A DNA stretch of 64,000 nt from Blasia pusilla. Its lineage: Eukaryota. Made by a program: the position numbers and the translations under genes. The DNA lies in assembly GCA_050084515.1 (NCBI GenBank), contig CM114271.1, positions 11,594,001 through 11,658,000 of the forward strand, read 5' to 3'. This document shows positions 22,770-64,000 of this stretch, one piece after another (within the stretch, counting starts at the first letter, position 1; each line of letters begins with the position of its first letter). The notes below the pieces were generated by a model. It did not search any database and had not been told where the DNA came from. It worked only from the letters and a program-made list of their open reading frames with translations.

Positions 22770-23674
22770 GGATGGTGCTAGAAATTATCTGCAAGTAAAG
22801 AAAGGGAAAACTCTTCACAAAGAAAAGGATGATGGTAGTGAGGAAGATGTCAGTCACGGCAAGAGAAGAGAACGTGGACCCGTTTCTTCCAAATTTCAAG
22901 GTCGGGCTCCTAGCCATGACCGGCACAACAAGCCCGACCTTCACGATTCAAGGCGATCAACATCTAGTCATCATGGTTGCAACTATCAGGTTCAAGCTCC
23001 GCGCGCCAGTTGTGATTCTTACAGTGATGCCCGACGCAATGGAGATTACGATCATCCGGCACTTGATGAGACACGAGTCTCGACAGAGGATACTGAGGGA
23101 CGAGATAGAGACAAGGGCAGAGAAAGAGATAGAGAAACGAGAAAGGGAAGCGAAAGAGAAAGAAGGAACGAGGATCGAGAAAGAGATACCGAATTAGCGC
23201 CAAAGGTAAAATTGGAGTTAGGGAGTCCAACATTGACAAAGATATGGGCAGGGAAGGGAGAATTGAGAGAGATAAGAGCAAGGAAAGAGAACGTGAAAAA
23301 GGAAGAGAACAAGGCAGGAGTAGGTTGAAAGGGAGGGACTTCTTTGACAAGGATAAGGACATGGAGAGGAGGAATGGAGGTGGTCAGAGCAGAGACGGCT
23401 ACAGAGATAGAGATAGAGATAGAGACAGGGAAAATGAAAGGAACAGAAGTAGGTACACCTCTAGAGATTCCAGCAATCACAAAGAGGTGGATTCAGGAGA
23501 TGGACGAGGGAGGAGCAAAGACAAAGAGAGAGTGAGAGACAAATTCCAGTCCAAAGCGGGAGCTAAAAGTTATCCATACTTGGATGGAGAAGAGAAAGAT
23601 GTGATTCATGACAAAGAGAAAGAACGAGAGAAAACTGGAGACAAGCCTTCAGGCAAAGAAATCCTTGTCGACAA
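22770..23674 (+). pseudogene. Arg/Asp/Glu/Lys-rich host-gene-like exon, 5' part (interrupted by the gypsy element)
   Basis: RDRDRDRDRENERNRSR-type low-complexity ORFs; reading frame rejoins 33358 onward once the insertion and TSD are removed (…EILVDNDLHMEKEN…). Confidence 0.6.
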
Positions 23675-24041
23675 TGTCATGACTATACGGATTATGTCGT
23701 AGAGTATGGTGTGCTAGTAGAGGCCATTCCTTATGTAGGACCGTAGTGGATTGGTAGAGATGCGGTTCCATACATAGGGTTGGGGGTTAGTCAGTTGGGG
23801 GTGACTTTCCCAGTAGGGCCCGCTCTTAGGTTGGAGGATATAAGGTGGAGTGCACTCAAAGAACAGTCACTTCTTTGAGTTGAGCCTGTTGCGTTGGGAG
23901 TTAGCCTTGGTAGTGAGTAGAGCTCTTGGCTATGGTGTTCCCGTAAGCTTCGACCTAGATTCTCCCATCGTGGAGTGGGTTTGGCTCGACTGTATGTGAT
24001 TGTAAACGTGTTTTATGACATGAGGTCTTTCACGGATTTCA
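23675..24041 (+). repeat. Terminal repeat B1
   Basis: Near-identical to 32877-33247. Confidence 0.93.
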
Positions 24042-25697
24042 CTCAAGAACAGGAGTAGATCGATGGTAACCGATTGTAGATCATAGGATCTGGTTAGGGT
24101 GATTGTGTACTCAGCCGTGGATGTTTGCGGCTTGTTGCCTATGTTGGAGGTGTGAATCAGGTGCGTGGTTGGTTGGGGAAAGAAGCGCCTTGCTGAGAGC
24201 TTTCAACGCGCTTTAGATCGCGGATTTCGTCAAGGGAGTTGGAAGTTATCAAGGATTGAAGATTACAGTTCGTGTTCGACGGTTTTCGATGTGGAGAGCT
24301 TGGAGTGCGGAAGTGTGTTGAAGTTCATCCAGATCGGGTGAGAGGTTCCTGTTGCTACTCATATTGTGATCTCCTATGAATCTATATTTCGAGTGTGTGG
24401 AGCGTTATGGATTTCTGCGTGCATGAAACTTGGCGGAAGCTATTTGCCAGTTTGCGATTCTCGGAGGTGTATGGATGACAAGTTTGTTTGATTTTTAGCT
24501 CGAGTCTGAGCTCGGTTGTAGCTGATTTTCTGTGGAGAGATAGCTATGGTGGTCAATTGAATTCTGATTGAAACAGATTTGATTTCGGTCACGTATTTGT
24601 GAAGTAATTTCTAATCGAAATTTTGCGGACTAGCTCAAGGTCTGGCTATGGTGGACAGCGGATCGGAGGGGCTGGTTGGTTGGTGACTTGTTCATTTTTG
24701 GAGACGCCTATCCCATTGGGGGCGCCCTGGTTGGACCTCTCTCCATAGCGAAGCATGGCGAAGCGTGGCGATAGGGGCATTTCTCGGCGTTTCGAGGCTT
24801 CGAGGCTTCGAGGCAACTCGTGGTAGCTCGGGGCGAGTGGGCGTGAGAGGCGGAGTAAGGAGCAAGGAGCAAGCAAGCAAGGAGCAAGCAAGCAAGCTTG
24901 CTTGCTTGGGCGTGAGGAAATTTTTGAAGGATTTGGGATTTGAGTTTTGCATAAGTGGTCACCCATCTTTGGGCTATTCTGCCTGGAGGACGCTTAACTG
25001 CTGAGTTCTTAACTATGCCAATGTCTGTTTGTTGTAGCTCATTTGGTCTTTGTTCGGAGATGTGTTAGGCGCTTTATGCATCTCAGGTTTTTGGTTGATG
25101 TACCTCTAGCGCATAGTACGGTGTAGCCTCTCCATGTAGGTGATATTTTCAGGTGCTGCGCGTTCGACTAGCACGTCATCGATCCGCGGCGGAATAGCTA
25201 TTGCGTTAGAATTGTGTGGTGGGTTTTGTGGATTCAGAGGGCACCACGTTTGGTGGATTGTGTTACCTTGATTTCCATTTGCGATTGGAGGGTTGTCGTT
25301 GGATTTCTTGTGTTTGGATCCCCTCCATCGTGCTTCTTCTGCTTGGCGCCCATTGTTAGGGTTGACGCTGATTTCGAGTAGTGTTACTCTGTGTGCTACC
25401 GGTAGTGAGGCTGGAGGGATGACGAGTAGATTGTGGGAGACTTCTTGTGGTGATGACAAGTTAGGTTGCCTACACCCATAGCTAGTAGAGCTAGAATAGT
25501 ATAGCGACATCGACGTCACTTGGTAATTTGGTGGTGGTGCGGCATCGGCGTTGGTCATCACGGAGTGTCGGGTGGTCTGGTTGGGGACCGTGTAGTGTGC
25601 GGGATGTGGTGGTTTCACACGGAGTGGATTTAGGTATCGGCTACCTTTTCCACTTCCGACGGTTGATGAAGAGGAGGACGAGGGTGTTCCAGCTCCA

Positions 25698-27000
25698 TTG
25701 ATTTGGGATATGGACGGTGGATATGGGGCCATGAAGGGCCCACGACGATACTCGGGTGCAGTGGGTACCATTGAGTTGGAGGACTTCATGCAGGAGTTTG
25801 ATACGTGGTGTGATATGCAGATGTTGCGGAACGCCACGTTGTTTACACCCTTCTTGGCTTGGAAGGGGTTGTTTCAGCACTTGGAAGGACCACCCATGGA
25901 TGATTACCATGAGTTTAGGAAGGACCATGTTCCTGAGATTGAGGCATGGACACAATATTGGTCTCCAGGCTATGTGTCTATCATCCATGGTGGTATTGGT
26001 AGTAGTGCTCCTACTATGCCAGCCAGCCCGACGTTGAGTGGTACGAGTACGAGCCGGAGTGGGGGTACCAGTGGAGGTACTAGTGGGGATACTAGTGGAG
26101 GTATTAATGCCCCACCATCGTTCACCCCGGTTGCAGAGTTCTTCAAGAGGTTGAAGAAGAACTATCAAGGAGTGAAGACGGAGAAGTTGAGGAATCTTCA
26201 GGACTTTGAGCGAAAGGCGGTGAGAGTCTTAAGTGAGGCATACACAGCGTATGCCACGCTTGATTTTAGTTACCAGGTGTGGCGAGGATCGAGCGATCCG
26301 ATTTTGGTATGGGATCTTGGGCAGAGATTTGCCGTAAGGGTGCGTGATGCTACTCTTATGAGTGATGATTCACCCACATTGACCCATGTGTTTGCTTTAT
26401 CTCGAGAAGATTGAGCTTAACATGGTGAAGGAGAGAGTGGTGACATCCGCATTCAAGAGGGGATACAACTACTACTTCTCGGGTTCAGCCGCCCACCTCT
26501 GATCTCGTAGTAGTGGTGGTGGTAGTAGTAGTGGGAGTCGTGGGGTACACGCGACCTCAGTCAAGTCCTAGAGGACATTTGTGCAGAGACCATTGCCTTC
26601 ATTTGCTGCCCGAGCAAGGACAATCATGTTGGACATGTGGAGGTGATCATGTTAGGAAGTTTTGTCCCCAAGAGGATGGGAGGCGGACTTTGGAGGATGG
26701 GCCTCGATCGGCCCCAACTCGGTGTGATCATTGCGGGGAGACTAGGTCATCCTCGAGGCGTTGCTTTGATCTTCATCCGAGTTGAGATCAGGCCGTGGCC
26801 GTGGTGGAGTAGCTCGAGAGGCCGAGGTGGTAGAGGTGGTAGGGGTGGTAGAGGTGGACCGGTGGTTGGAGAGCCTACGGTGGCTACCCCTACCACTCTG
26901 ACAGTCGACTATGGCTTCGAGGATTGAGCGGTTGGAGGCGGTTGGCTACTATGGTTGGTATCCATAATAGATCGGTTCGGGGGCGGGGCTTCCACCTCTT
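25698..27000 (+). pseudogene. gag: gag with two CCHC Zn knuckles (frameshifted)
   Basis: YSGAVGTIELEDFMQEFDTWCD; CWTCGGDHVRKFC; CDHCG(RLGHP)..C. Confidence 0.8.
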
Positions 27001-27599
27001 ATGGAGGGATGATCTCTCTTATATGGCGAAAAGGCCGGGTTGAGGCATCAGTGCGATTCTGAAAGGAGCCACTCGGCGTCGAGCCACGTGGTGCTCTTTG
27101 TGGAGTTGGACCCCTGAGAGGGGGTGGGGGGGCGGCTAGGCTTCCCAGTCATTCTTGTTGCCTCGAGGTGCTTAGGACTCCATCCATGGTTCCTCGCGAC
27201 CTATTGAGCCGGCAGTGGGGCCGAGGCATCTACATCGGCGTGTAGTAGACACGGATCAGCATCGATCGATTGCGGATGGCAAGCCGGTGTTAGGATCCCC
27301 ATTGTTTTCGACCACGAGGCGATGGCTTTAGGAGTTGACTTAGCTCTGTATTTCAGCTAAGCGACCACATTGTGTGACGTGGGGTATTCTTGCTACTGCG
27401 TGTTGAGGTGGATGAGGATGTTGCGATGGAGCGACCCTCTATGTCGGGAGTAGCATTGAGTACGGTGCTACTTGGCGGCGGGCGGCGAAGATGGATGCAT
27501 TACCGGCCCGGCCAGCCATTGATCGTGAGAGGCTTACACTGGTGTATGTATGTTGGACAACCGGAGTGGGATCTTCCGATTGGTGAGTCCTCAGGCAGT

Positions 27600-27970
27600 G
27601 TATAGACCAGATAGAGTCTTGTTAGGCTCGGTGCCCAACCTTTGATGTTGGGAAAGGCGGCATGTATTGGTTTGGGTATTCGGAGGTGAGCTTGAGCCTT
27701 GCCCATTCAGATTCAAACATCACTTGGGCAGCCAATGATAGGTCTCAATTCATGACACGGGAGAAGTTTTCTGTATAGTTGAGACCAGATCATGCGATTG
27801 ATAGCTCCCGGTTGGGAGTATCTGCGGTAGTCACATCGGCCGAGTCGTATGATGTACTAGTTGGAGGAGCGATGTGTACCCGATGGGTTTCAGATGGATT
27901 TGGTGAGGCAGCGTCTTATAGACCAGGTTGGCGATCCGAGGATGGGCGTATGAGCCAAGTTCTGTGAGAT
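27600..27970 (+). pseudogene. Aspartic protease (damaged)
   Basis: RVLL-SGAQPLMLG (DSG active-site position with a deletion); YDVLVG downstream. Confidence 0.65.
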
Positions 27971-28299
27971 TTATTTACGGGGCTCGACCATGAGGGTCTT
28001 CCCCATGTGTTAGCATCTGTGGTGGTTTTAGTGGAGTAGTCACTTGGCCAGAGACTTTTTGGAGGTAATGTTTTCGCTATGGATTCTCCTGCATGAGGAG
28101 GTAGAGGAGGTCCCTATTTTTGCAGTGGCATCCTCATCGTTGGATGTGCCACTTTGGAGTTCGAGGCGGTGCACTACGGCAGAGGCGTCGCCTAGTGCAG
28201 GAGGCTTGGTGTGAGGCTGTTATACCTCACGAGGAAGAGGAGGCCCCACGGCGGACTCCTACTTCTGGTCCAGTTGGGTTATCCCCTTTGGATACTACA

Positions 28300-29275
28300 C
28301 CCATTGTATGGCAGTATCCGCCGGAGGGTATTTGTGTGTTAGATCTCTTTGGTGGGATTAGCACTGGTTTGGCTGTAGTGTTGCAGGCCGGTATTCCTGT
28401 GCGGAGATACGTGTATGTGGAGCGAGATGAGACGGCCCAGAGAGTCTCATCTCGACATATTGGTCAGTTGATGCGGAGATACCCTGAGTTGTTGCCGCCA
28501 TCAGCTATTCGTGGGTACCAGCGTGCTTTACCATCACACATTGCATTGTTGGGGGTGCAGGACCTTGAGAGAATTGGTCCTGTGGATTTGGTGATTGCTG
28601 GATGGCCATGTCAGGGTCATACACATGCTAGTCGTGGTGAGGGATTACATGACCCTAGGTCTCGATTGTTTTGGGAGATGTTACGGATGTTCGACATCTT
28701 GAGTTCATCAGCACATGCTCTAGCTTACATTCGGAGAATGTTCCATTGTTAGGTGACACTCGGACCCGGATTATGGCGAGTGTTCATCAGTGCGGTCTTG
28801 GATTGGACCAGCGGTGTTGTTGGATGCTGGCCATGAGTTGGCTCGCGTGCACATCGTCGAGCTTGTGGTGGACAAACTTGTTGCCTAGGAGGTTCTCGTC
28901 GAGCATATGATGCGGTCTGGCGGGATCCTCGCCTTATAAAGTGGATAGTATCTTGAATCTTGGCGACTTTCTCAAGTGGTGAGGGTTATTGATCGGTCAC
29001 CCATGGCGGTGGTGAACGGTGTGGGCGACCTAGGATGGCACTACCCACATTTGTGAGTTTTTCAGCGTCACATGCCTCTGAGGAAGGTGGTCGGGGCTTG
29101 TATGGGATTCTCATGTGCGGCGGTTGGTGTTAACGCCGATGAGAGAGAGAGCGCGATGGGATTTGCTCTTTTGGTGTGACATGGTTGCTTCTATTTACGA
29201 GGCTTCACAACGTCATGTGTTGGGTCACGCCATGGACCTGAATTGTTTGACTTGGATTTTGAGTCTTGGTATGGC
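28300..29275 (+). pseudogene. C5 cytosine DNA methyltransferase domain (Dnmt3-like) within pol
   Basis: Motif I VLDLFGG, II YVERD, IV DLVIAGWPCQG, VI ENV, VIII (R)xRLWWTN, IX ERERAMG-like, X LGHAMD; several frameshifts. Confidence 0.9.
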
Positions 29276-29739
29276 GAGCGGCGTCGACCGGACTATGTCG
29301 TGGGTCTTCCACCCCTTGTAATGAGCTCGATGGCTCCGGGATGGTAGAGGCATCGGTGGGCGAGGAGAGTAGTATTTTGCATCCTTGGAGTAAATGGGAT
29401 GTAATGGCTGGGCATGTGGAGTTGGTTGCTCATGGTGGTGGAGGAGTTATTTGCTCAGATGATGGTGTAGCTAAGGGTGTACCATCTTGTGAGGGGGTTG
29501 CATAGCAGCCAATGGCATCGTCCTCTCCCTCTAGTGTGCCAGTGGAGGAGACTTGGGAGCCATTACTTGGGCCCAAGCTTACGGGAGGTGAGAAACGACG
29601 CTTGACACAGTTCCTACGTGCTTATAGGAGTTGTTTTGCCTTTAGCATGAAGGAGTTGGGTTCCCTGGTTGGACCGGTATACGGATTGATTTGGCTAGTG
29701 ATACGCCAATCTTCCGTCGTCCCTACCGATATAGTGATA

Positions 29740-30975
29740 TGGAGAGGGAGTTGATTGAGTAGGGCGTTGGACCTTTTGGAGGTGGATTAGTGGAGTTGTC
29801 GCATGGAGAGTATGCATCGCCCTTGTCATGCTGCTAAAAAAGGATATGCATGGCAACTACGGATAGGCGGATGTGTGGAGATTCTTGTCTATCAATCGGC
29901 AAACCAAGGCCGATAGGTATGCCATGCCTACACCGAGGAGATCTTTGATGTGGTGGGACAGGCAAAGATTTTCAGTACTTTGGATCTTCGGGCACGATAC
30001 CATCAATTTGATTCGGGAGAGTGACAAGGCCAAAGACAACATTTTGGGGAGTCAACTCTCATGGCAAGGATTGTTTGTACATGTGGAAATTCTTACCCTT
30101 TGGGTTGAAGAATGCACTGCCGAGTTTCAAAGAGTGATGGTCTGGATCCTAGCAGGGTTGGATTTTGTTCGGTGTTACATTGATGATATCTTGGTGTTCA
30201 GTAACACGGTGGAGGAGCATCAGATACATTTGCAGATGGTGTTTGAGCGGTTGAAAGCTCATGGTCTACGTTTGCATCTAGGAAAGTGTAAGTTCTTCCA
30301 TGAGGATGTTGAGTACTTGGGTCATGTGATCTATCCAGGTGGTTTGGGAGTTCAGCAAGCAAAGGTGGAGGCTATTGCACTTATTCCGCATCCGGTAGAT
30401 GTGAGTAGAGTTCGAGCATTCATGGGATTGGCGAACTACTATCGGAGGTATGTGAAGGGATTTAGTGCTATGGCAAAGCCTTTGAACCAATTGCTGAAAT
30501 CAGATCAAGAGTGGCATTGGGGAGATGATCAGGAGAGAGCTTTTGTGGAGCTTAAGGCCCAGTTGGTGGCGGCGCCTATCTTGAGGAGACCTATCAGAGG
30601 GCGCCCATTCAAGTTACACACCGATTGGAGTAGGTTGGGACTTGGAGCGGTGTTGACACAACACGATGATGAGCACATCGAGTTTGTGGTGGCCTATGCA
30701 AGTCGTTCGAATAATGCAAAAATGAGTCGTGCTATAGTTCATATGAGGGAGAGTGCTTGGCGAGTAGTGTGGTGTGGCACACTTTAGGTGTTACTTGTTT
30801 GGCACCCAGTTTTACCCTTTTCTTGATCACCAACCGCTCAAGTGGTTGATGGAGTCGGACAAGCTTACGAGGGGAAGCTTGCACGGTGGGCTCTTATCTT
30901 ACGGGAGTATGACTTCCGGGTGGTACATAGACCGGAGTTGCCAACCTTGATCTTTGATGGGTTGAGTAGGAACCC
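29740..30975 (+). pseudogene. pol: Reverse transcriptase + RNase H
   Basis: YIDDILVFS, LHLGKCKFF..VEYLGH, VRAFMGLANYYRRYV, LHTDWSRLGLGAVL, VAYASRS, DHQPL, ARWALIL.EYDF. Confidence 0.93.
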
Positions 30976-31289
30976 ATGTACTAGCCAAGAGGATACAACA
31001 GGGGCTAGATTGCATGGCGAGGTTGATGAGGAGATGGTGCCAGGTTGGCATGCATCCGCCTTTTTATGTTGGTTAGGGGTGGACTCTAGTATGGAGGACC
31101 ACATGATATCTTACTCTAGTCAGAGGGTAGATGGCCAGCCTTCAGATCCTAAGGTTGGAGATGGTGGTACGGATCAGCGTGATATTCATGATGATGCGTT
31201 GGTGTTGGAGTTCCTACGGACCGGTAGGGTGCCAGGCATAGTGAGTGCCAAGGAGCGAGACCGTGTTCTTCAACGTGCTAAGAGGTATT

Positions 31290-32450
31290 GATTGGAGGGA
31301 ACACATATTCTCCGCGTATGGGAGGATGGTAGAGTACGAGTAGTGCTACATTTGGCTCAGAGAGAGCGCATTGTGCGACATGCCCATGAGGAGTTGGGAC
31401 ATTTTGGGGTAAAGCGTACGTATAGCTTACTCCTTGGCCAGTATTGGTGGCGTGGCATGCATACTCAGTGCAGTGATTGGTGTCACGTTGTATGGTTTGT
31501 GACCGGGTGAGGCATCATTTAATGCCCTACACCACAATTACACCCCTTGCCTATTATGGGGTTGGGTTACCGTTGGAGTGTGGACTTTGCGGGACCGTTA
31601 CCGTTGGTATGCGACATCATCGATATGTGTTGGTGATGGTGGAGCACTTCTCAAGTGGATTGAGTTGGTGGCATTACCGGACAAAGCGAGTGAGGAACGG
31701 CGTATGCGTTTGGATAGAGTGCTTAGTCATTTTGGTGCACCGGTTGAAGTCTTGACCGACCAGGGTAGAGAGTTTGAGGTGAGTTTGGTCTTGTGTGACA
31801 AGGCGTTGATTGATCATCGGACCACGTCTCGAGATCATCCAGGCGGATGGTTTGGCTGACCGTGTGGTTCAGGGCGGTGAAGAGGGCATTGTGCAAGTAT
31901 GGCCTCTGAAGGGCATCTTGGAGACCAGGATATTCGATTGCCATGGTTAGCCATGGGGTATAGGTTCGATCGCCAAGCATCCTTGGCTTCCTTCTCACCT
32001 TATTTTTTCATTATACGGCCGAGATCGGACTTGCCGCGAAGCAATTAGTGTCGGAGTCTAGTGAGGTGGTGAACCTTGATGACCCGGAGAAATGTGGATG
32101 AGGTGTGTTCTCGAGCGGAGCTCTTTCGGAGAGTTATGCCAATAGCCTTTGAGAATCTTGCCATTGCTCAACACAGGGATACGTTGCGGTATGCAACCAT
32201 TCAAGGTGGAGGTTATCGACCATCGATTTGTAGGTTCCATGTGGGGGACTATGTCTATTTGCAGCAGATTGCCCGACAACGTTGGATGTGTGGCGGGGCG
32301 CACTATTTTCGAGTCGCGAGGTGTTAGCTTCTAGAGTTCTCATGTTGGAAGGTCGTGATGGAGTTGTTTGGAAGGACCATGTGCGTAATTGTGCGCCATG
32401 TCATCTTCCAAATGTGGATGGTACTGTTGACCCAAGCTTAGCCATGATAC
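31290..32450 (+). pseudogene. DDE integrase (HHCC finger + core), frameshifted
   Basis: HEELGHFG..CMVC, WSVDFAGP, VLTDQGREF, AIAQHRDTLRYA, HVRNCAPCHLP. Confidence 0.88.
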
Positions 32451-32460
32451 GTGCTTGAGA

Positions 32461-32601
32461 TGCATGTTGTGTGGGTCTGCTGGTAACGCAGCCCGTATGT
32501 TGGTGTGTGATCGGTGTTCTAGGGGTTGGCACATGATGTGTTTGACTCCACGTTTGGATGTTGTTCCTACTGGAAGTTGGGTTTGTCCTCGATGTACTTA
32601 G
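32461..32601 (+). CDS. C-terminal PHD finger of the pol polyprotein
   Basis: CMLC..MLVCDRCSRGWHMMCL..WVCPRCT* = C4HC3. Confidence 0.92.
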   Translation, partial: CMLCGSAGNAARMLVCDRCSRGWHMMCLTPRLDVVPTGSWVCPRCT

Positions 32602-32757
32602 GAGAGGTAGATGACTTGATCTTTGCATGATATGGATTACAGATGTGCGACTAACGATGGGACAACCTAGCACCCGGCCTTCTGATTCGGGCACCCAAGA
32701 AGGTGTATAGCATGTAGTAGATGTATAGGGCTACAGGAGTTAGAGGACCTAACCGCT

Positions 32758-32772
32758 AGTTAGGGGGCGAGT
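32758..32772 (+). other. Polypurine tract
   Basis: AGTTAGGGGGCGAG immediately before repeat A1. Confidence 0.65.
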
Positions 32773-33353
32773 TGTGGTACATTTTTGTTTGTGGATACTC
32801 GTCTATGTTATGTATGTATGTGAGTATGGTATGTCGGCGATGTATGTTGTATGACGATGTGGATTACAGACGATATTGTCATGACCATACGGATTATGTC
32901 GTAGAGAGAGTATGGTGTGCTAGTAGAGGCCATTCCTTATGTAGGACCATAGTGGATTGGTAGAGATGCGGTTCCATACATAGGGTTGGGGTTAGTCGGT
33001 TGGGGTGACTTTCCCAAAGAGGGGCCCGCTCTTAGGTTGGAGGATATAAGGTGGAGTGCACTCAAAGAACAGTCACTTCTTTGAGTTGAGCCTGTTGCGT
33101 TGGGAGTTAGCCTTGGTAGTGAGTAGAGCTCTTGGCTATGGTGTTCCCGCAAGCTTCGACCTAGATTCTCCCATCGTGGAGTGGGTTTGGCTCGATTGTA
33201 TGTAATTGTAAACGTGTTTTATGACAGTAGGTCTTTCACGAATTTCAATTGTGGTACATTTGTGTTTGTGGATACTCTCGTCTATGTTATGTATGTATGT
33301 GAGTTTGGTATGTCAGCGATGTATGTTGTATGACGATGTGGATTCGCACGACA
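32773..33353 (+). repeat. 3' A1-B2-A2 repeat block (A1 32773-32875, B2 32877-33247, A2 33250-33353)
   Basis: TGTGGTACATTT..GATGTGGATT occurs twice, flanking a copy of B1. Confidence 0.92.
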
Positions 33354-33357
33354 ACAA

Positions 33358-34119
33358 CGATTTACATATGGAGAAGGAAAATAATCTGACCAAGAACAAA
33401 GATTCCGGTAGAGATGGAGAGAGAGAGGGGGCTGACGACCGAGGAGTTCGAGAGTGCAGTGTCTCAGACTTAGACAAAGATAAGGCCTCCAGAGATTGGG
33501 ATGACGACAAGGGTCAAGATCGCCGGAAAGGACAGGATCGGTACTCTGAGGGGGTTGATCGAGAGCAGAAATTGAAAGACAGTAAAGATACTGTCCGGCC
33601 TAAAGATAGGAATGAACAGAAGGAACAAGATGGTCCTAGGGACAAAGCTAAATGTAGAGACAGAGATCTGTAGATTGAGAAAGATGAGTTGGGAACCGCT
33701 AGTGAGCTCTCTAAAGTCAAGTATCGGCAGGAGAAGATCAGCAGCGGGAACAAAGTGAAAGATGGGGGAAATAGTGTTCCAAGGGACAGAGTTCAAGGGA
33801 AAGACAGACGATCCGAGGAAAGACAACGTGACAATGAAAAGATTCCGCATAGTCCCGTTGTGGCAAATGATCACGGAGTGAAAAGGAGCCAATTGAGCAC
33901 GAAGGAGTGTGATGGTGATGGAAACTCAAAGTTAGAGACAAGGGATGGAGAAAGTAGAAGCGATTGGAAGGTCAGCAAGGGAGATATGGAGAGTGCAGGG
34001 CAGAGGGCACGTTTATCTGGTTTTTCTAGTGATTCAGAAAAGAAGTTGCCAAGTTCATCTAATGGTAAAGTTACAAAAGAGTCAAAGTGGGGTCCTCAGG
34101 CATCAGATTCTGCCATTGT

Positions 34120-34120: not shown

Positions 34121-34592
<472 letters not shown>

Positions 34593-35170: not shown

Positions 35171-35542
<372 letters not shown>

Positions 35543-53895: not shown

Positions 53896-55174
53896 TGTGA
53901 TACCCATAATTTTGTACTTTTGAAGAAATACCTCTTTTTATTCAACGAATACTTGTATATACACTATGATTTTGATTATTATATATTATTATGGAGAAGA
54001 ATGAGTAAGATTAAAATGAATCACGAAGCCCCAAGGACAAGGCAGAGAGATAGAAAATCAAGGATTTTCTTGAGAGGAGAGGAGAATACAATAACGAAGT
54101 CTAAAGACCCATCAAAAAGCTTCGAAAGGACAACGAAGCTCTGTTAAGAACTTGTCTATGAAGTGCTTCGCTCCTGAACGAAGCATGAAGAAGAAGAAGA
54201 AGAAGAGAAAGAAGTACTTCGCTCTTGAATGAAGCTCAAAGAACGAAGCACCTGGAACAAGAACAAAGAATGAAGCGCTTCGTCTTTATATCAGGAGAAA
54301 GAGCTTCGTCCTCAAGCAAAGCTTGAGGACTTAACAGCGAAGCAAAGCTAAGATTGACAGTGATTTCAAGCAACACATAGTTAGAACAGTTAGAATAGGA
54401 AAAGGCACAACTCTTTGTATCCGATAAGTAGTTAAGACAGTTTTGTTTTGCGGATTCATAGGGATCTTAGGAAAAGAGAAGAGCACCATAGCTCTAGGTA
54501 GTTACAAATGTTGAAGAGACATCAACTACATCAAGAACGCTTCGAATCTTTGGATCACTCCTACTTCAGAGAGTTTTTAAGAAACATGCAAGTAGCTATC
54601 ATCATCATTCTCTTACGAAGTCCTTATGTTATAGGAATGGTCTGAGCAAGGGAATAGTACCCTCTCGAGCTTGTATACACTTTTGAATCTTTCTCATTCT
54701 TGATGGAGTAGTAAAGCACTCATTCATTCATTCTGATGTGCGATGTTTATGTCTGAGTATTCTTTTTGGGTCTGCAAAGTGAAGAGTGAATCACGCGAAC
54801 CTTTCTCATCAATGGAATAATCAACATAGAGTTGTAGGAAATCTGTTTGATAGAGAGTAGCCTGCCGAGACGGATTGAGCTCCGAAAGTAGGAGAAGCTA
54901 GCTTTCATGTTGAGGTCTCTGTGAGCTTTCTTGATATCGAGAGGCAATCTACCTGAGCGTGTTGTCAACTCCACTAGAGAGAATAGAGAAAAAAAAACCT
55001 TGGTACTAAGAAAGATCCTAAGATATTGATAAGACATTGAATTTAAATCATACACACTTAAATACAACTATTACAACATAATTGTAATTTTGAACTCTCT
55101 TTTCATCAAACAATGATCCTCTTGGGGATCGAACTCAGTAAACGACTATAAAATTGAAACTCTTATACATTACA
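53896..55174 (-). mobile_element. Solo LTR (1279 bp)
   Basis: Ends TGTAATG…TATCACA on the minus strand; perfect TSD TAAAA (53891-53895 / 55175-55179). Confidence 0.92.
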
Positions 55175-57479
55175 TAAAACAATGGCTCAGAATGTACGAG
55201 AGCGTGAATGATGGAACAACGGTCTCGGATTAGGGTTGGGCACTCAAAAGGAATAGGTAGATATGGGCGTGTTTAGATAAGTTTCCTTGGTCGCCTCCAC
55301 ATCTCCGACGTGATAAGGAGAACCAATGAAACAAATCTAAAAACTCGAGTCTATGAATCAAAAATCTCAAAATCACCAAAAAAGTTTAGTGACAACAAGA
55401 GATTTCTACACTCACAAACACTCACCTAATGTTGAGTCAATTGGAGTTTCTTTAGGATGCAACAAGGAGTGCAAATATCCAAGTTGGTCCCAATAAAATC
55501 CAAGTACCCCCAAAAGGCACTTAAAGGATTTCCCCAAAATTCCTAGTAACCTTGAAAGCCCTTAGTTCTCAAGGCACCAATGAAATTTGGAGCCTAATCC
55601 AAAATGTCACCAAAAGATGGCTAAAAAATGAGAAAATAGAGATAAATAGGTTAATTAACCCTATATCCCCCCTTCTTTTATTCATTTTGGGGGCCCCTTG
55701 TGGGCCCTTCCCTTATGGGTTTTACCCATAAGGGAAGGGCCCACAAGGGGGACTCGTAGGCCCGCACTCAGGCTCATGGGCTTGTGGGGGGGCTGGCGGG
55801 CCCACGTCGCAAGCCCTAGAGCCCGCATGTGGGCTAGGGCCCGACGTGGGCCCGACTTAAGAATGGGTGCCGAGCGTGATGCACATTGGTTGAGCAAGGG
55901 TGGAATGCTCGAGGTGCGTGGGCTCGGGTGTGGTCCAAGGCACACGGGCCCATGGAGCCCGCATAGGACGGACATAAGTTTGCGGATACAGACATGTCTG
56001 CAGACACGAACTTTGTCCGCGTGCAACCTTGGTCTCAAGGGAACAAGATGGAATAAGAGTTTGGTGTTGGAACTCGAAACCCAAACCTGATCCAAGGGAG
56101 TGGATTTCGTAAGCCACACTTGGATTCCAACTCGCGATTCATTTTTGTGACTTGCAGTTAGGAACTCATTAGATGTCTATTGGGAAATTGGAACCACCAG
56201 GCATGCAAATGTTGTTTGAGGTTCTTGAAGCGACCAAAAAGTCTGTCCCAAGTCTTCAAAGACTTTCCTATGTTGTAAACTGCAAGAGGAAGGTTGAGCT
56301 TGATGAGAGGCTGAGTTGAGAACTCGAAAAGTTAGAATGTTGATTGACCCAGACTCGACTAACGTGAGTGCCTGTTTGGGTGCAGATCAAGATTGAGAGC
56401 GTGTTCTACTAAACGCACACTTCCGCAACATTAATGATTTATGTTCAAGGAGAGTAGGCGCACACGTCGTGTCAGCATGGGCACATACGTATGGTGCTAT
56501 AGGGCTAGCAAGAAGTTAAGGAGGGCCAGGTCGGGCTCAGAGTAGGAACATTGGAAGTGCGCGAGCAGCTGCAAGAGTTTCAAGGGGTAAGGAAGTGAGG
56601 ACCGGACTGAGTCATTATGACTCATGGCCATAGGTGTTGGAGTGGAAAAGGAGAAGCCATTATTATAGCTCCAAGGAAATAGGGCATTGGGAGAGGAAGC
56701 AACCATATGGGACTACGGGCCGAAAAGAGGCAATTAAGAGTGTCAAGGGAGCAGGGTTCTTGGGGGACGCGGGCCTAAGGGTCGCGTAGTACAGGAGGAG
56801 TTTTGCGGAGGAAGGGAGAGGATGAGAGAGCCATTATGGCTCCAAAGACAGGGGAAGGTGCATAGGGCACCGTGCTATGTGATCGACTCGCTATGCGAGG
56901 AGATGGTTGTGCTACCAAAGTTGTCGTATCACATGGAGGAGTGAGTGATGACGGTGTATTGATTGGCGGGCATGTTCAGGTTACCCATTTGAGTCCCTTT
57001 TCCTACACTTATCTCGTGTCATTGAGGGTGATGGGTATCGGGAAGTAGCTAGTGCTAGATAGGTGTAGCGATGGTGACGAGTGTAGACTCCTTGCATGTG
57101 TAGCATGTTTGTGGAGATAGGGCAGTTGTCTGAGTAGGGTATGACCCGAGAGAGAGTGTTAGTAGTTTAGGTGAGTTAGTTCGAGAGGCGCATGGTAAGG
57201 TCGGGTGTGTCATCACGGGATTGGCATTAGCATAGGTAAGCTAGTGAAGAGTGTGGGAGACTCTCGGTGAGTCTGAGTGCTTGAGCGGGTGAGACAAGAT
57301 TGTCATCATGGCATTCTTCAAGGGTTCAAAAGAATGGGGTAGTACAAGGTAGTACGTGAGGTATTGAGGGGTTTCTAGTGAGGAACCACCCTGACTTCCA
57401 TCTGTGGTTGGATCGTCATCACTAGACAGCGGGTCAGGTGACGAGATCGCAGACGGAGATAATGTCACGAGGGGAGAGA

Positions 57480-60400
57480 TGGACGACATGGGCCACCAAG
57501 GCATGCGTCATTTCTTGGATGCAATAGGCACCATAGACCTTGATGATTTCATCCAAGAGTTTGACACATGTAATGTATAAGAGTTTCTATTTTACAGTCA
57601 TTTAATAAGTTCAATCCCCAAGAGGATCATTGTTTGATGAAAAGACAGTTCGAAATTACAATTCTGTTGTAATAGTTGTATTTAAATGTGTATGAGTTAT
57701 ATTCAATGTCTTATCAATATCTTCGGATCTTTCTTAGTACCAAGGGATCTTTTCTCAATTCTCTCTAGTGGAATTAACAACATGCTCAGGTAGATTTCCT
57801 CTCGATATCAAGAAACCTCATAGAGATCTCAACAAGAAAGCTGGCTTCTCCTACTTTCGAAACTCAATCCGTCTCGGCAGGCTACTCTCTATAAAACAGA
57901 TTTCCTACAATCTTTATGTTGATTATTCCATTGATGAGAAAGGTTCGCCTAATTCACTCTTCACTCTGCAGACCCAAAAAGAATACTCAGACATAAGCAT
58001 CGCACATCAGAATGAATGAATGATTGCTTTGCTACTCCATCAAGAATGAGAAAGCTTCAAAGTGTATACAAGCTCGAGAGGGTACTACTCCCTTGCTCGG
58101 ACCATTCCTATAGCATGAGGACTTTGTAAGAGAATGATGATTATGGCTTGTGTTTTGCTTCTTAAATATTCGTTGGAGTAGGAGTGATCCAAAGATTCGA
58201 AGCGTTCTTGATGAAGGTGGTGTCTCTTCAGCATTTGTAACTACCTAGATCTATGGTTATCTTAGCTTTTCCTACGATCCCTGTGAATCCGCACAACAAA
58301 ACTGTCCTAACTATCTATCTGATACAAAGGGTCACGCCCTTTCCTAGTCTAACTGTTCTAACGGTGTGTCGCTTGAAATCACTGTCATTCTTAGCTTCGC
58401 TTCGCTGGACTTCTTGAGGACAAAGCGCTCCATTCTTCGTTCTTCTTTAAGGTGCCTTGTGCTTCGCGCTTCGTACAAGAGAGAATTACTTCTTTCTCTT
58501 CTTCTTCCTGCTTCGTTATGCTTCGTTATAGAGCAAATCACTTCGTAGACAGAGCTTCGTTGAGCTTCGTTATCATTCCGAAGCTTCTTGTTGGGTCTTG
58601 AAACTTCGTTATTTTATTCTCCTCTCCTCTTAGGAAAATCCTTGATTTTCTATCTCTCTGCCTTGTCCTTGGAGCTTCTTGATTCACTTTAATCTTACTC
58701 ATTCCTCCTCATAATAATAAATAATAATCAAAATCATAATGTACAAGAGTCTTCGTTGAATAAAAATATATATTTCTTCAAAAGTACAAACTTATGGGTA
58801 TCACAATACATGGTGCGACTTCCAAGAGATCCGAGCCCCTACGCAGGTTAACCCTTTCATGGCGTGGAAGGGTCTATTCAAGCATTTAAAGGGTCCTCTG
58901 ATGGATGACTACATGGAGTTTCGATCTGTATACTCAATAGAGATCGATGCCTGGAGGGTGTATTGGGCTCTAAGGTATGTGTCCACTAGTGGTCGTGAGG
59001 TGTATGATGGGATGGTAAGGGCGGAGAGGCCTACACCATCAACCAGGGGACTAGATGGAAAGGACATCAGTGAGAGTGGTTAGGTGGCAGAGACCTGTCG
59101 TGATAGAGGACCACCGAGTTTCAGTCCTTTAGTGGAGTTCTTCCAAAATTTGGGGAGGAGCTTCCAGGGCGTACGGACCAATCAACAAGCTGAAGAGTCT
59201 ACGGGATTTTTAACGGAGATCGGGTGAGAGTCTAAGGGAGGCGTTCACGCGCATGCAATGGCTGATCATTGCCACATATGGGATAGTTGAGGCGCAATCA
59301 ATACAACATTGGTACAGAGTGCTGGACCAAGAGCTATGGAGGAGAGTTCAGGATGCAATGTTGCTTCACATGGAGAAGCCCACGTTGAAGGTGGTCTTCG
59401 AGTTGTCTAAGCAGATGGAGCTAAACATGAATGAAGAGTAGGTGGTGACCATGGGATATTCAAAGGATTTGACAGGTTTTTGAGTAGGAGTAGCCCCACA
59501 TGTGCCCGAGCATGCACCAATACCACAGGAGCCAGCCGATGGACCTAGAGAGCAGGGCGAGTATCGTGAGCCAATGAGGCAACAACCAGTACCCACATAT
59601 GTTACTTAGCAAGGACCAAGGTTGACTTGTTGGACTTATGGTGGGCCACATAGGCACAGGGACTTCCCACAATATGGTAGAGGGCTGAGGGTGGCTCCGA
59701 TTGTTGAGGAGCCACCTTGGATGGCCCCACCACAGTTGCAATGTGATCATTGCCATCGATATAATCACACTAGGGATAGGTGTTTTGATCTTTGCTGGGA
59801 GGTACGGTTAGAGGTTGGCAGAGGAGGCGGGGGCAAGAGAGTTGGTGGAGATCGAGTAGTGGATGATCGTGGTGGTAGAGTTCCATCACGAGTCACAAGA
59901 GATGGAGGACGTGCACCAGATGCAGCGCTCCTTACTCACATCGATCAGTTAGAGCAGAGGATTGTTGCCATGACAATGATGCATCTAAGAACAGGCACGA
60001 AGTTGAGAGTAGCTAGTGTGGCTCCAACCTCCACATCTTACCACAATATTGGCAAGGATTCTCCTGGTATGGGATTTATGTGTAGTGCAGCTCAGGTTGA
60101 GGCTACTGCGAGAGCAATCGAGCCATCGAGAGGAGGGGTTGAGATTGACCTATAGAAGAGGACTGATGGGCGGAAGGCCAGGGTTCCACAATCATGTACG
60201 TTATTAGGTGCACTTCATACACCGTCGATGGTGCCTTGACAACCAATAGTGCCCAAAAGTGAGGCAAGTGGGTTGACGTCACGAGGAGTTGGAGAGACAA
60301 CTCCTATGCCAGCTCAGGTGGAGCCAACGTCGACTATGTTGTTGAAGGTGGCCACTAGAGTGAGTTGGGCTCCATTGTTTTCCGCCATGGAGTTGGCGAC

Positions 60401-61710
60401 TTTGGGAGCTAGACAAGGGGAGGTGTTCCGGCTGGATGCTATGTTGTGTGAGCATAGAGAGGTGATTGCCTCTTGTTTAGAGATAGTTGAGGAGGTGGTG
60501 GACTTGCCTTCGGAAGAGGTGTTGGGGACGTCCCCCACTGAATCATGGCATGCTGCGGCGGCAAAGTTGGTAAATATGCCAGCTAGGCCAGCGATAGAGT
60601 GAGCCATGATCACACCAGGTGTGGTGTTGTTGGATAATTGAGTTGGGGTGTTTCACTTGGCTAGTCCCATAGGTACAATGTATCACCCTGTTTTGGGAGC
60701 GCAACCCTTGATGTTAGGGAAAGAGGCATGTTTGGCGTTAGGATTACGGAAAGGTGACATTAAGCCTTGTCCCTTTCAGATACATACCTCAATTGGGGGC
60801 GTATCACCCACGCAATACATGACTCGACAGGAGTTGGTGGTTAGACTTTAGCCAAAGCATGTGTCAGATAGTGCGATGGTGCGCACTCAGGAAATTACAA
60901 TACCGACAGAGTTGTATGATGTGCTGGTAGGGAGTACGATGTTGTATCCCCTTGGGTTCATTGTGGATTTTTGGGAGGAGATGGTGTCTTATCGACTAGG
61001 ATGACGATCAAGTGATGGATGGGTGAGCCATCTATCAGTGATGTTTGCATGGGGTAGTGGTGGTCGACCACGTGAGGATACGGTGACCACGTTGGCAGCA
61101 TTCACACGTGGTGTTAGCTGATCATGAGGGTTTGGGGAGAGGAGCACACATGCAGAGGGCATTCCCATAGCGAATAGTCCCACGGAGAGACAAGCCAAGA
61201 TGGGTGTCTCTACCATGGTGCAAAGCTTCTTTATCCTTGTTGAGTTGCGTGGAGTGCACACGAGCTCGTGAGGCAGGCGTGGAGTTGTGCCTATATCTTG
61301 GAGCAAACAAGTCAGATGACGGTCGTAGTCTTGGAGTAGAGACTTGATATCTCCGAGTTCCGCATATGTTATGTGGCAGCGTTTGGAGCATGGTACGAGA
61401 GTGTTATATCTTTTAAGAGGGATCAACACGGCGAGCTATTGCAATGTTACAGTATTGTGGGAATGACGGCACCGATGGTACTAGATATGTGTAGGATAGT
61501 AGATCATGTCGGGTACATATATGTGTGCTATGTGGAGTTAGGGGGATCCAACTCCTAATTAGAGGGGCGGTTGTGGTGTCTCGATGTATATGCATGAGTT
61601 TGTTTCGTTTATGGATGGATCGACCCATGTGTTTGGAAGATCGGTGTTGTGTGGTGTGTATATATGACGAGAAATATGGATTATGTAGTGATGTGTATGC
61701 TCACGACAGT
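57480..61710 (+). mobile_element. Degenerate relative of the 23675 gypsy element (gag + protease, internally deleted)
   Basis: GTIDLDDFIQEFD|TWCD, AWKGLFKHLKGP, CDHCHRYNHTRDRC, GAQPLMLGK, YDVLVG; PPT at 61561, then an A-type repeat ending CACGACA at 61708. Confidence 0.8.
57569..58805 (+). mobile_element. Solo LTR (1237 bp) inserted in gag
   Basis: TGTAATG…TATCACA; TSD ACACA/ATACA; removal restores TTT GAC ACA TGG TGC GAC (FDTWCD). Confidence 0.92.
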
Positions 61711-61947: not shown

Positions 61948-64000
61948 TGTCATGCGCATACATATCGCTACACGACATACATCGTTGTCATCGAACACAC
62001 ACACAAACACGTACGATCCCATGCTAACTCATGGCATCCAAACAATGAGACAAGAAGTACCAAAATATCTCCAATAAAATAAGGTCCAATCTCTCTCTCA
62101 ACACCATAGTTCTCACATGTCTCTCTCAATGTCAAACCCAAACCACTCTCCTAATGAGAGGCTTGGGTTACACACACAAGGCAAGCAAGACCATAGCTCC
62201 GCCGCCTCATGCCAAGAAGTTCAACAAAGAGAGAATGAGCTCTCAAACTCTCTCTCCTTGAGGTATACCCCTCTCCTCTCATCTCCCAAGCTCTCTCCAT
62301 GAAAACATATGCTCCCAAGTCACCTCCTTGGCTCTTGACCTGATGTAGGAGGTCAAGGGCCACTTACCAAAAATAGAAATTCGATCATATACTCAAAACA
62401 ATACTTGCCTAAAATAGTAAGTTCCTCAATATGGCTCCAAATGAGCTGAAACGAAGGGAAAACCTGCTCTCTCAAGTTTCCCGAGGCCTCAGTAGGTCAT
62501 CCTCAACCTCTTGAGTCCGTCCTCCACTACTCACAAAGGCGCTCTACTAGATTTCACTGATCTATTCTAAAAGACGTGATAGTTATCATGCGCATATACA
62601 TCGCTACACAACATACATAGCTGTCACCGAACACGCACACAAATACGCACGATCCCATGCTAACTCATGGCATCCAAAAAATGAGACAAGAAGTACCAAA
62701 ATATCTCCAATCGCCCCACTAGCTGGTGATTAGGTCCTTCTAACTCCAGATAACCATCTATCCCTACCTACCATGGCATACATCTCTCAGACGCTAAGAG
62801 CAAGAAGGTCGGGTGCTCATGTGGCCCCATCGTTAGTCGCATTCTCGTAATCCATAACAAGTCAAAAGTCAAAATGTAGAACTACCTACTCTATGTACAT
62901 GTGGGACACATCCATCATTCTTGAGGAACCCTAGTGAGAGGTGGCGTAAAGCATGCCATATGCCATCCTCTCGAACATCCATCACAGACTAGCACGGTGG
63001 TTGCACCACGGGAATAACCACATAACATACATCGCAAGCATGTAGGAACTACTGCTTAGCTCGGATCAATTGTATCATCAATGTTTGGAAGGTGACACGG
63101 CGCATAATTACGCACATGGTCCTTCCAAACCATACAATCATGTCCCTCCAATAAGAGAATATCTGATGGAAAAACCTCACGCATTCTAAAAATGGTGCGC
63201 CCTGTAGTCATATCCAACGTTATGGGTGTCGTCTGTTGCAAGTAGACATAGTCTCCCTGATGAAACCTCCGGATAGTAGGTCCATAACCTCCCTCCCAAA
63301 TAGTCACATACCTCAATGTATCCCGGTGTTGCGCAATCGCCAAGTTCTCAAACGCCATGGGCATCACTCTCCAAAACAATTCAGCCCTCTGAGAATATGC
63401 TCGCATCCAAACATCAGGATCACCAAGGTTCAACACCTCACCAACATCTCGACAAATGGCCATAGGTAAATCAGGCTCTCGGCCATACAAAAGCAAGTAG
63501 GGTGAGAAAGACGCTAGGATGCCTGCCTGTTGAATCTGTATGCCATCACCAACCACGGCAACTGGAGGTCCCAATCTCCTATGTGACCTCTCTGCAAGCC
63601 ATACTTGCGTAGTCCTCTCTTCACCCTATGCACAACCCGCTCCGCTAGTCCATCCGCCTCAACATGATCTCGCAAAGTAGTGCGATGGTTGATCAGTGCC
63701 TGATCACATAAGGCTTGAAACTCCGGCGGAACTCTGTACCCTGGTCTATCAACACCTCAGCTGATGCGCCATAATGACTCAACACTCAATCTAGGAAGGC
63801 ATACGCTACTCCTAGATTTATGCACCACGTGGAAGTCATACTCCCTCTACCTTCGTCTACTGCAAACCAAGGCCCCCTGGGTATATTGTATGACCTAGGT
63901 ACTCAATCTGGTTGTAGAAGAACTTGCCCTTGCTTGGATGTAGCTTCAGCCCATGTAACTACAATCGTCAAAATATCTCCTCTAGATGTCGCTCATGCTC
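61948..64000 (-). mobile_element. 3' part of a third family member: RT fragment, integrase, PHD, PPT and A-B-A repeats
   Basis: AFENLAIAQHRDTLRY (ORF 63056-63574); PHD CMLC..CDGC..WHMAC..CPTC (62891-63033); PPT ~62712-62722; 128-bp repeats 62584-62711 and 61948-62075. Confidence 0.88.

Follow-up and report, generated by a model that had tools for sequence, protein, structure and literature searches.

Gene content of the element

We analyzed a stretch of 64,000 nucleotides (nt) from Blasia pusilla (assembly GCA_050084515.1, contig CM114271.1, positions 11,594,001 to 11,658,000 of the forward strand), here called the window, in which positions 23675 to 33353 hold a retroelement with unequal terminal repeats that we label E1 and positions 61948 to 64000 of the minus strand hold a second element that we label E2. 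E1 belongs to a Ty3/gypsy lineage of streptophytes and bryophytes and is an old, dead copy. It is broken by many stops and frameshifts, and its gene order is gag, protease, Dnmt3-like methyltransferase, reverse transcriptase (RT), RNase H, DDE integrase, and PHD finger; the Ty3/gypsy order with a DDE integrase that an initial annotation had read from the sequence was upheld by Pfam and tblastn. Pfam searches of the plus-strand frames returned RVT_1, RT_RNaseH, Integrase_H2C2, and DNA_methylase, while the gag, the DDE core, and the PHD finger were placed by tblastn with proteins of relatives.

All of these regions lie on the plus strand. The gag-like region (25710 to 26779) was matched by tblastn with P0006 and P0045, gave no Pfam hit, and contains a CCHC-like knuckle, seen by eye, near 26627-26665. 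It is followed by a region matching the protease part of relatives' polyproteins (27289 to 27960; weak Asp_protease_2 matches, in the relatives only), by a Dnmt3-like C5 cytosine DNA methyltransferase domain inside pol (28105 to 29280; PF00145, E value of 1.3e-05; relatives 59-75% identical), and by RT and RNase H (29335 to 31315; PF00078, PF17919, PF17917, and tblastn), which are interrupted by stops and frameshifts. The integrase (31292 to 32455; PF17921, and tblastn to the rve region of P0045) consists of an H2C2 zinc domain, a DDE core at 31496-31841, and a C-terminal part. The PHD finger 3' of the integrase (32455 to 32598) is 83% identical to residues 171-218 of P0057, which carries PF00628.

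Polyproteins of the relatives carry CCHC, weak protease matches, DNA_methylase, RT, RNase H, rve, and PHD. For the methyltransferase piece we found 56 longer relatives, of which those that are named belong to Sphagnum, Marchantia, Calypogeia, Closterium, and Mesostigma; the first three are the closest named protein relatives, and the last two are more distant. Among solved structures, the RT-RNase H of relative P0018 is closest to the Ty3 RT (4ol8; E value of 4e-48) and its methyltransferase part is closest to DNMT3A (E value of 2e-06). The integrase of a distant relative, P0056, matches that of prototype foamy virus (PFV) best (E value of 2e-20), ahead of that of Ty3 (6e-12). A tyrosine recombinase domain (PF00589) was found in none of 33 open reading frames of E1 and E2, and the relatives' polyproteins have rve and no PF00589.

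The plus strand of 24000-34000 is poor in C, with a GC skew of +0.24 to +0.33 and an AT skew of about -0.1 to -0.2, and the relatives appear similarly G+T rich. Differences between the window copy and other copies are mostly transitions.

Unequal repeats and a target site duplication

A repeat search and blastn gave E1 the layout B1...polypurine tract-A1-B2-A2. The sole 5' repeat, B1 (23675 to 24041), is 94.9% identical to B2 (32877 to 33247) across 373 nt. A1 (32772-32865) and A2 (33249-33344) are 94.8% identical across 96 nt and can be extended by eye to 32875 and 33353, respectively; no A-like sequence was found before or after B1 by blastn within the window. The G-rich polypurine tract (32762 to 32771), conserved in relatives, adjoins A1. 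One base (T, 32876) separates the A1 end from the B2 start, and a single base (33248) stands at the joint between B2 and A2. We read B1 as a unique 3', repeat, and unique 5' (U3-R-U5) unit, and A1 would make up the leading 104 nt of the repeat that reverse transcription generates.

E1 begins with TGTCATG and ends, at the end of A2, with CACGACA, termini of the TG..CA type. It is flanked on either side by ACAA, a 4-bp duplication (23671 to 23674 and 33354 to 33357). Excising E1 with one ACAA leaves a single 285-amino-acid (aa) open frame through the site (23133 to 33670), while control excisions of E1 with 3, 5, or 6 nt leave frames of 188-190 aa. The layout, termini, duplication, and frame restoration that had been noted from the sequence were thus all borne out.

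The interrupted host frame (23133-23674 and 33358-33670) is rich in R, D, E, and K, with RD/RE repeats, and gave no Pfam match. Shortly 3' of it are near-perfect (AG)n/(GA)n runs of 309 and 208 bases (34282-34590 and 35332-35539).

The layout recurs in E2 and in metagenome relatives

E2 is cut at the window edge and is ~70% identical to E1 in the integrase region (blastn, tblastn). Its 3' end matches that of E1: downstream of the integrase and PHD finger follow, on the minus strand, a polypurine tract (62720-62711), A1' (62710-62584), a 2-nt spacer, B' (62581-62076), and A2' (62075-61948). A is 126 nt long in E2 and 92% identical between its copies, B is ~506 nt long, and the terminal motif is GACA, as in E1. 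E2 also has an internal deletion, between its RT part (63839-64000) and its integrase part (63806 downward).

An alignment of the integrase C terminus was used to scan metagenome contigs and gave 481 related stretches, of which 80 were kept as loci; many are homologous to E1 even within A and B. Two other searches, of viral contigs with the E1 RT frame and of metagenome contigs with an exact 22-nt B-start pattern, gave no match. A polypurine tract followed by A, a 2-nt spacer, and B was present in 25 of the 80 loci, which represent 12 distinct A-B-A inserts, 2 distinct fold-back variants (described below), and L017, truncated where its locus ends. In another 25 loci, representing 22 distinct B...A inserts, the A end passes directly into unrelated flank. 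L069 is a deletion derivative, and among the remaining states of A, two loci are without its last 2-3 bases, four have a truncated A, and two end inside A. A more diverged lineage (L023:2392-3070) has an A of 107 nt (98% between copies), a GT spacer, a B of ~465 nt, and A. Contigs from four sequencing runs pile up on E1 far above its flanks, and other copies in those contigs also show A-GC-B and B/A joints.

At the 5' side, 19 of 48 B matches, corresponding to 14 distinct inserts including E1, show flank, B, and primer site in that order; among these 14 distinct 5' ends from the 48 scored matches, none has A and B ahead of the internal region. An ordinary AB...AB structure in most copies, which the initial annotation named as the finding that would reduce E1 to a one-off rearrangement, was therefore not what we found. 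Both ends can be seen in 10 distinct inserts. Eight of them (L002, L007, L012, L016, L040, L055, L070, and E1) are flanked by exact 4-bp duplications, and in the other two, L015 and L072, the duplication matches at three of four bases. Inserts thus occur in two forms, B...A and B...A-B-A, which carry the same motifs at their ends and lie between such duplications. As the initial annotation had supposed, B...A-B-A is a trait of the family, in that it recurs; most relatives, however, are of the B...A form with no repeated part (22 distinct, versus 12 distinct B...A-B-A inserts plus the two window copies). A third arrangement, B-A-B...A, was seen in none of the 11 elements with both ends visible, versus five B...A-B-A.

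Motifs of the insert ends meet at an internal A/B joint

At the internal A/B joint, the A end (CACGACA) is separated by two bases from the B start (TGTCATG). Most copies have GC or AC as the spacer, contigs of two other organisms have GC, and single loci have AT, GT, or TC; the single T of E1 is one base short of the two found in relatives. The A-end and B-start motifs, which also bound every insert, together form an imperfect inverted repeat. The internal copy in relatives has CA and TG separated by two bases. If both strands of such a site were nicked after CA, it would open with 2-nt 5' overhangs, the form that retroviral integrases use for strand transfer.

The conserved G-run tract stops exactly at the A start in E1, E2, and the relatives, and the terminal A of A-B-A inserts begins at the same boundary. 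These positions suggest that the tract is used to start the plus strand at the A start. We scored the base at the B/A joint in 12 E1-like inserts (11 from the metagenome, and E1): it is G, the last base of the tract, in seven, A in three, and GAA in L071, and in L040 (10837-10858) the joint holds a 17-nt filler resembling a nearby stretch of B together with four extra tract bases. Run contigs of other copies show further variants. The B/A joint looks like the right end of the complementary DNA (cDNA), the B end, joined to its left end, the A start, that is, like a junction of two long terminal repeats (LTRs). The initial annotation had likened the A/B junction to a circle junction and placed the integrase sites there; the integration ends do lie at a palindromic A/B, CA-nn-TG in relatives, but the joint that resembles ligated ends is B/A. 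A filler inherited across L040 and L048 was considered and rejected, as their shared flanks make them a single insert.

A putative self-priming site follows B

B1 is followed immediately by 10 bases, CTCAAAGAAC in most copies, whose reverse complement, GTTCTTTGAG, occurs in B. The latter motif starts 32 nt past the TATA box of B, a position that, judged by TATA spacing, would be the transcript start. In E1 the TATA-like box is at 23839-23845, the putative 10-nt self-primer lies ~31 nt beyond it at 23870-23879, its start being set by the same spacing, and the putative primer-binding site adjoins B1 at 24042 to 24050, where one base of the 10 present in relatives has been lost. Primer and site match at 10 of 10 positions in L007, L015/L076, and L024/L055 and at 9 of 10 in L002/L003, L013, L017, and L072, with lower matches in more decayed copies. 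In the L041/L065 subfamily, TTCGAAGAAC follows B and GTTCTTCGAA lies in B2, which amounts to two compensatory pairs. We infer that the sequence after B is a putative self-priming site of the Tf1 type.

Two independent inserts have fold-back 3' ends (L009:1168-1798 and L030:3246-3876; L030 and L034 are one insert). They read A, spacer, full B, primer-site sequence, a 3-nt loop, inverted B from position 1 to ~180, and flank, and their right-hand integration end is the inverted B start. On the opposite strand, this corresponds to a plus-sense U3 and 10-nt primer covalently joined to the complement of the B end. The fold-backs may be fossil primer-cDNA joints in which the 3' copy of the primer had primed at the site after B.

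B also contains a hairpin of 9-10 bp, formed by a copy of the primer-site sequence (23855-23864 in E1), a short loop, and the primer (window 23855-23879; likewise in L055, L007, and L012). It straddles the predicted transcription start and is weaker in the L041 subfamily. We speculate that the primer-site copy, being in U3 and so present only in the 3' copy of the RNA, might mask that copy of the primer.

A model for replication and integration

Since the A start adjoins a polypurine tract and the B end a putative self-priming site, the cDNA repeat would be permuted relative to the inserted ends. We consider it probable, though by no means assured, that reverse transcription makes a repeat of A, two nucleotides, and B, that integration takes place at the inner A/B sites, and that the cDNA ends are joined before a B...A-B-A copy inserts. 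Minus-strand synthesis would start at the Tf1-like site just after B, whose sequence complements the initial 10 nt of the transcript, and plus-strand synthesis at the polypurine tract just before A, together building the A-2 nt-B repeat. The integrase would ignore the repeat ends and use the inverted pair of sites that meet inside the repeat, so that the insert would run from the B start to the A end and be flanked by a 4-bp duplication. Cleavage of a linear cDNA at its two internal sites would give B...polypurine tract-A with no repeats, while a cDNA whose B end had first been joined to an A start would give B...polypurine tract-A-B-A, as in E1. The B...A-B-A form would be the sole one to keep a downstream B, with the 3' R and poly(A) signal, and therefore the sole form expected to replicate.

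The ends could be joined in two ways, by formation of a 2-LTR circle that the integrase then cuts or by an end-to-end template switch that gives an over-length linear cDNA. The initial annotation had proposed a permuted or circular intermediate. Permutation of the cDNA repeat relative to the inserted ends agrees with our data; the circle is a deduction, and its simplest version, a 2-LTR circle cut at random, predicts B-A-B...A as often as B...A-B-A, contrary to the 0 versus 5 observed (n = 11). The end-to-end switch is a better fit to this count than a circle cut at either site. A stricter proposal, which we offer as a tentative possibility, is that the obligatory substrate is a closed circular cDNA (2-LTR, perhaps 1-LTR) opened at the palindrome within the repeat, which would make this the first DDE-integrase LTR retroelement of its kind. 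The variant that dispenses with circles altogether, in which RT extends to the B end and then jumps to the A start of a cDNA end and the integrase takes the outermost B start and A end of the resulting over-length linear molecule, seems to us rather unlikely. It accounts for the absence of B-A-B...A and for the usually precise B/A joint with its templated G and would yield both insert classes; however, the filler at the L040 joint fits end joining as well as template switching.

A linear cDNA that reverse transcription itself made with its ends already at the B start and the A end, with no joining of ends or internal cutting, would have the merit that inserted ends carry inverted terminal motifs and duplications, as ordinary cDNA ends do. 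Its minus strand would have to be primed from a site at the B start and its plus strand at the A end, but the A end is not purine rich and the conserved G-run tract adjoins the A start instead; similarly, the complement of the R start is the sequence after B, not the B start, and compensatory changes preserve it there. Moreover, such a cDNA would be B...A and unable to carry the extra B-A tail, whose A begins at the polypurine-tract boundary and sometimes includes tract bases. We regard this alternative as improbable. Still less probable is movement like that of DIRS, PAT, and Ngaro elements, in which a tyrosine recombinase, encoded by the element or supplied in trans, would integrate a closed circle at A/B. 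The repeat topology is the same as that of the split direct repeats described in PMC5890265, but the search for PF00589 in E1 and E2 was negative (0 of 33 frames), and an integrase with H2C2 and a DDE core is present. The TG..CA ends and exact 4-bp duplications (8 of 10 inserts) contradict this alternative as well; to our knowledge, tyrosine recombinases leave no TG..CA ends with 4-bp duplications. Finally, E1 is old and heavily mutated, as would suit a local rearrangement, nested insertion, or mis-assembly of an ordinary A-B...A-B element. This explanation we hold to be hardly credible: E2 shares the layout, as do 12 distinct metagenome inserts belonging to at least two further lineages, the duplications flank the entire B...A-B-A unit, and a published relative has the same repeat arrangement (PMC5890265). 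Recurrence in the metagenome and the duplications refute a local accident as the origin of the layout of E1.

Several observations weigh against the model of permuted repeats, inner integration sites, and joined ends. The B...A class could equally have arisen by later deletion through A1 x A2 recombination and so is not specific support. No long open frames were seen in any of 12 full or near-full relatives examined or in either window copy. We left 21 of the 80 loci unclassified, as they gave no A match; 17 of them end <520 bases past the match, but L074, L075, L078, and L079 have enough sequence and yet no A match. The transcription start, the poly(A) site, and the use of the primer are predicted from sequence, as are the circular or over-length cDNA intermediate and the internal cutting by integrase that we propose.

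Comparison with known systems

By the textbook account, LTR retroelements integrate at ends made by reverse transcription. E1 resembles canonical Ty3 (Metaviridae) in its RT-RNase H-integrase order, its polypurine tract, its short duplications, and its TG..CA termini, and it likewise has a candidate primer site after the upstream repeat and a candidate tract before the downstream repeat. Unlike canonical Ty3, it does not have two identical flanking repeats, its 5' end being B and its 3' end A-B-A or, in relatives, A, and the integration ends of the lineage would not be those made by reverse transcription.

The putative priming site is nearest to that of the Tf1/sushi group, including plant Tcn1, in which the primer site after the repeat complements the first bases of the transcript; self-priming has been predicted for the plant Tcn1/Tf1-sushi clade (PMC6317226). 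The E1 lineage differs from chromoviruses in having a PHD finger in place of the chromodomain and in the proposed permutation of integration ends relative to the repeat.

PAT, Ngaro, and SymbioDIRS-Dnmt3 share with E1 an arrangement with one repeat part at one end and three at the other, and in each the internal joint brings two element ends together. E1 differs from them in its DDE integrase, TG..CA ends, and 4-bp duplications and in that no recombinase was found; DIRS, PAT, and Ngaro tyrosine-recombinase retroelements are not known to make target site duplications.

The proposed cutting has a precedent in retroviruses. The integrase of PFV cleaves the palindromic 2-LTR junction (PMC1180852), and that of HIV-1 is reported to cut a palindromic LTR-LTR junction in vitro (PMC1905944). 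As proposed for E1, a retroviral-type integrase there cuts an internal palindrome of two end motifs and gives processed ends. The difference is that the palindrome of foamy virus and HIV-1 arises only when two repeats are ligated, whereas in the E1 lineage every repeat already contains it, with a 2-bp spacer. The likeness of the P0056 integrase to that of PFV is weak grounds for a shared property.

The repeat layout of E1 is already in print for Klebsormidium, with no mechanism given in the passages concerned: the legend of Fig. 4c of a 2018 report by de Mendoza et al. (PMC5890265) describes KnitGypsy-Dnmt3 of Klebsormidium nitens as having DIRS-like repeats (A-coding-B-A-B) with gypsy domains. 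The statement in the initial annotation that split direct repeats are foreign to DDE-integrase gypsy elements is thus outdated. KnitGypsy-Dnmt3 and E1 share a gypsy-type pol with a Dnmt3-like methyltransferase as well as these repeats. The likeness is drawn from the published description, and no Klebsormidium protein is among the named relatives in the 56 methyltransferase matches; the account, in those passages, gives no primer site, duplication, or B...A class. A literature search for the name KnitGypsy returned PMC5890265 only, and word searches, which are no proof of absence, found no published gypsy element whose integration sites lie within the repeat. As far as the literature searched goes, the putative self-priming site, the proposed permutation of cDNA ends against integration ends, the two classes of insert, and the presumed fold-back fossils are new.

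Other elements in the window

A third, partial element at 57479-61240 on the plus strand has gag, protease-like, and methyltransferase-like pieces with 30-58% protein identity to relatives. It ends near the 3' end of E2, and one may have inserted into the other. A primer and primer-site pair was sought at its 5' end (54500-57600), where nothing convincing was found, and that end could not be defined. An RT-like frame at 21-626 on the plus strand is ~33% identical to the RT of the E1 family and probably belongs to another retroelement.

Implications

The cDNA ends and integration ends of this family would be offset by ~110 bp, in many independent inserts of several lineages. If the model is correct, a retroviral-type integrase routinely cuts within its substrate and cDNA ends are joined before integration, which bears on the old question of circular cDNA as an integration precursor. 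Should the closed-circle form hold, a gypsy element would have arrived independently at the circle-based strategy of DIRS elements and pararetroviruses, and the B...A copies would be direct, dead-on-arrival products and not later deletions. The model would also give a mechanistic reason for the "DIRS-like" repeats of the Klebsormidium gypsy-Dnmt3 element. It predicts that LTR finders pairing B1 with B2 would overlook both the terminal A and the duplication and would fail to detect any B...A copies, so that the annotation of an abundant bryophyte family may be systematically off.

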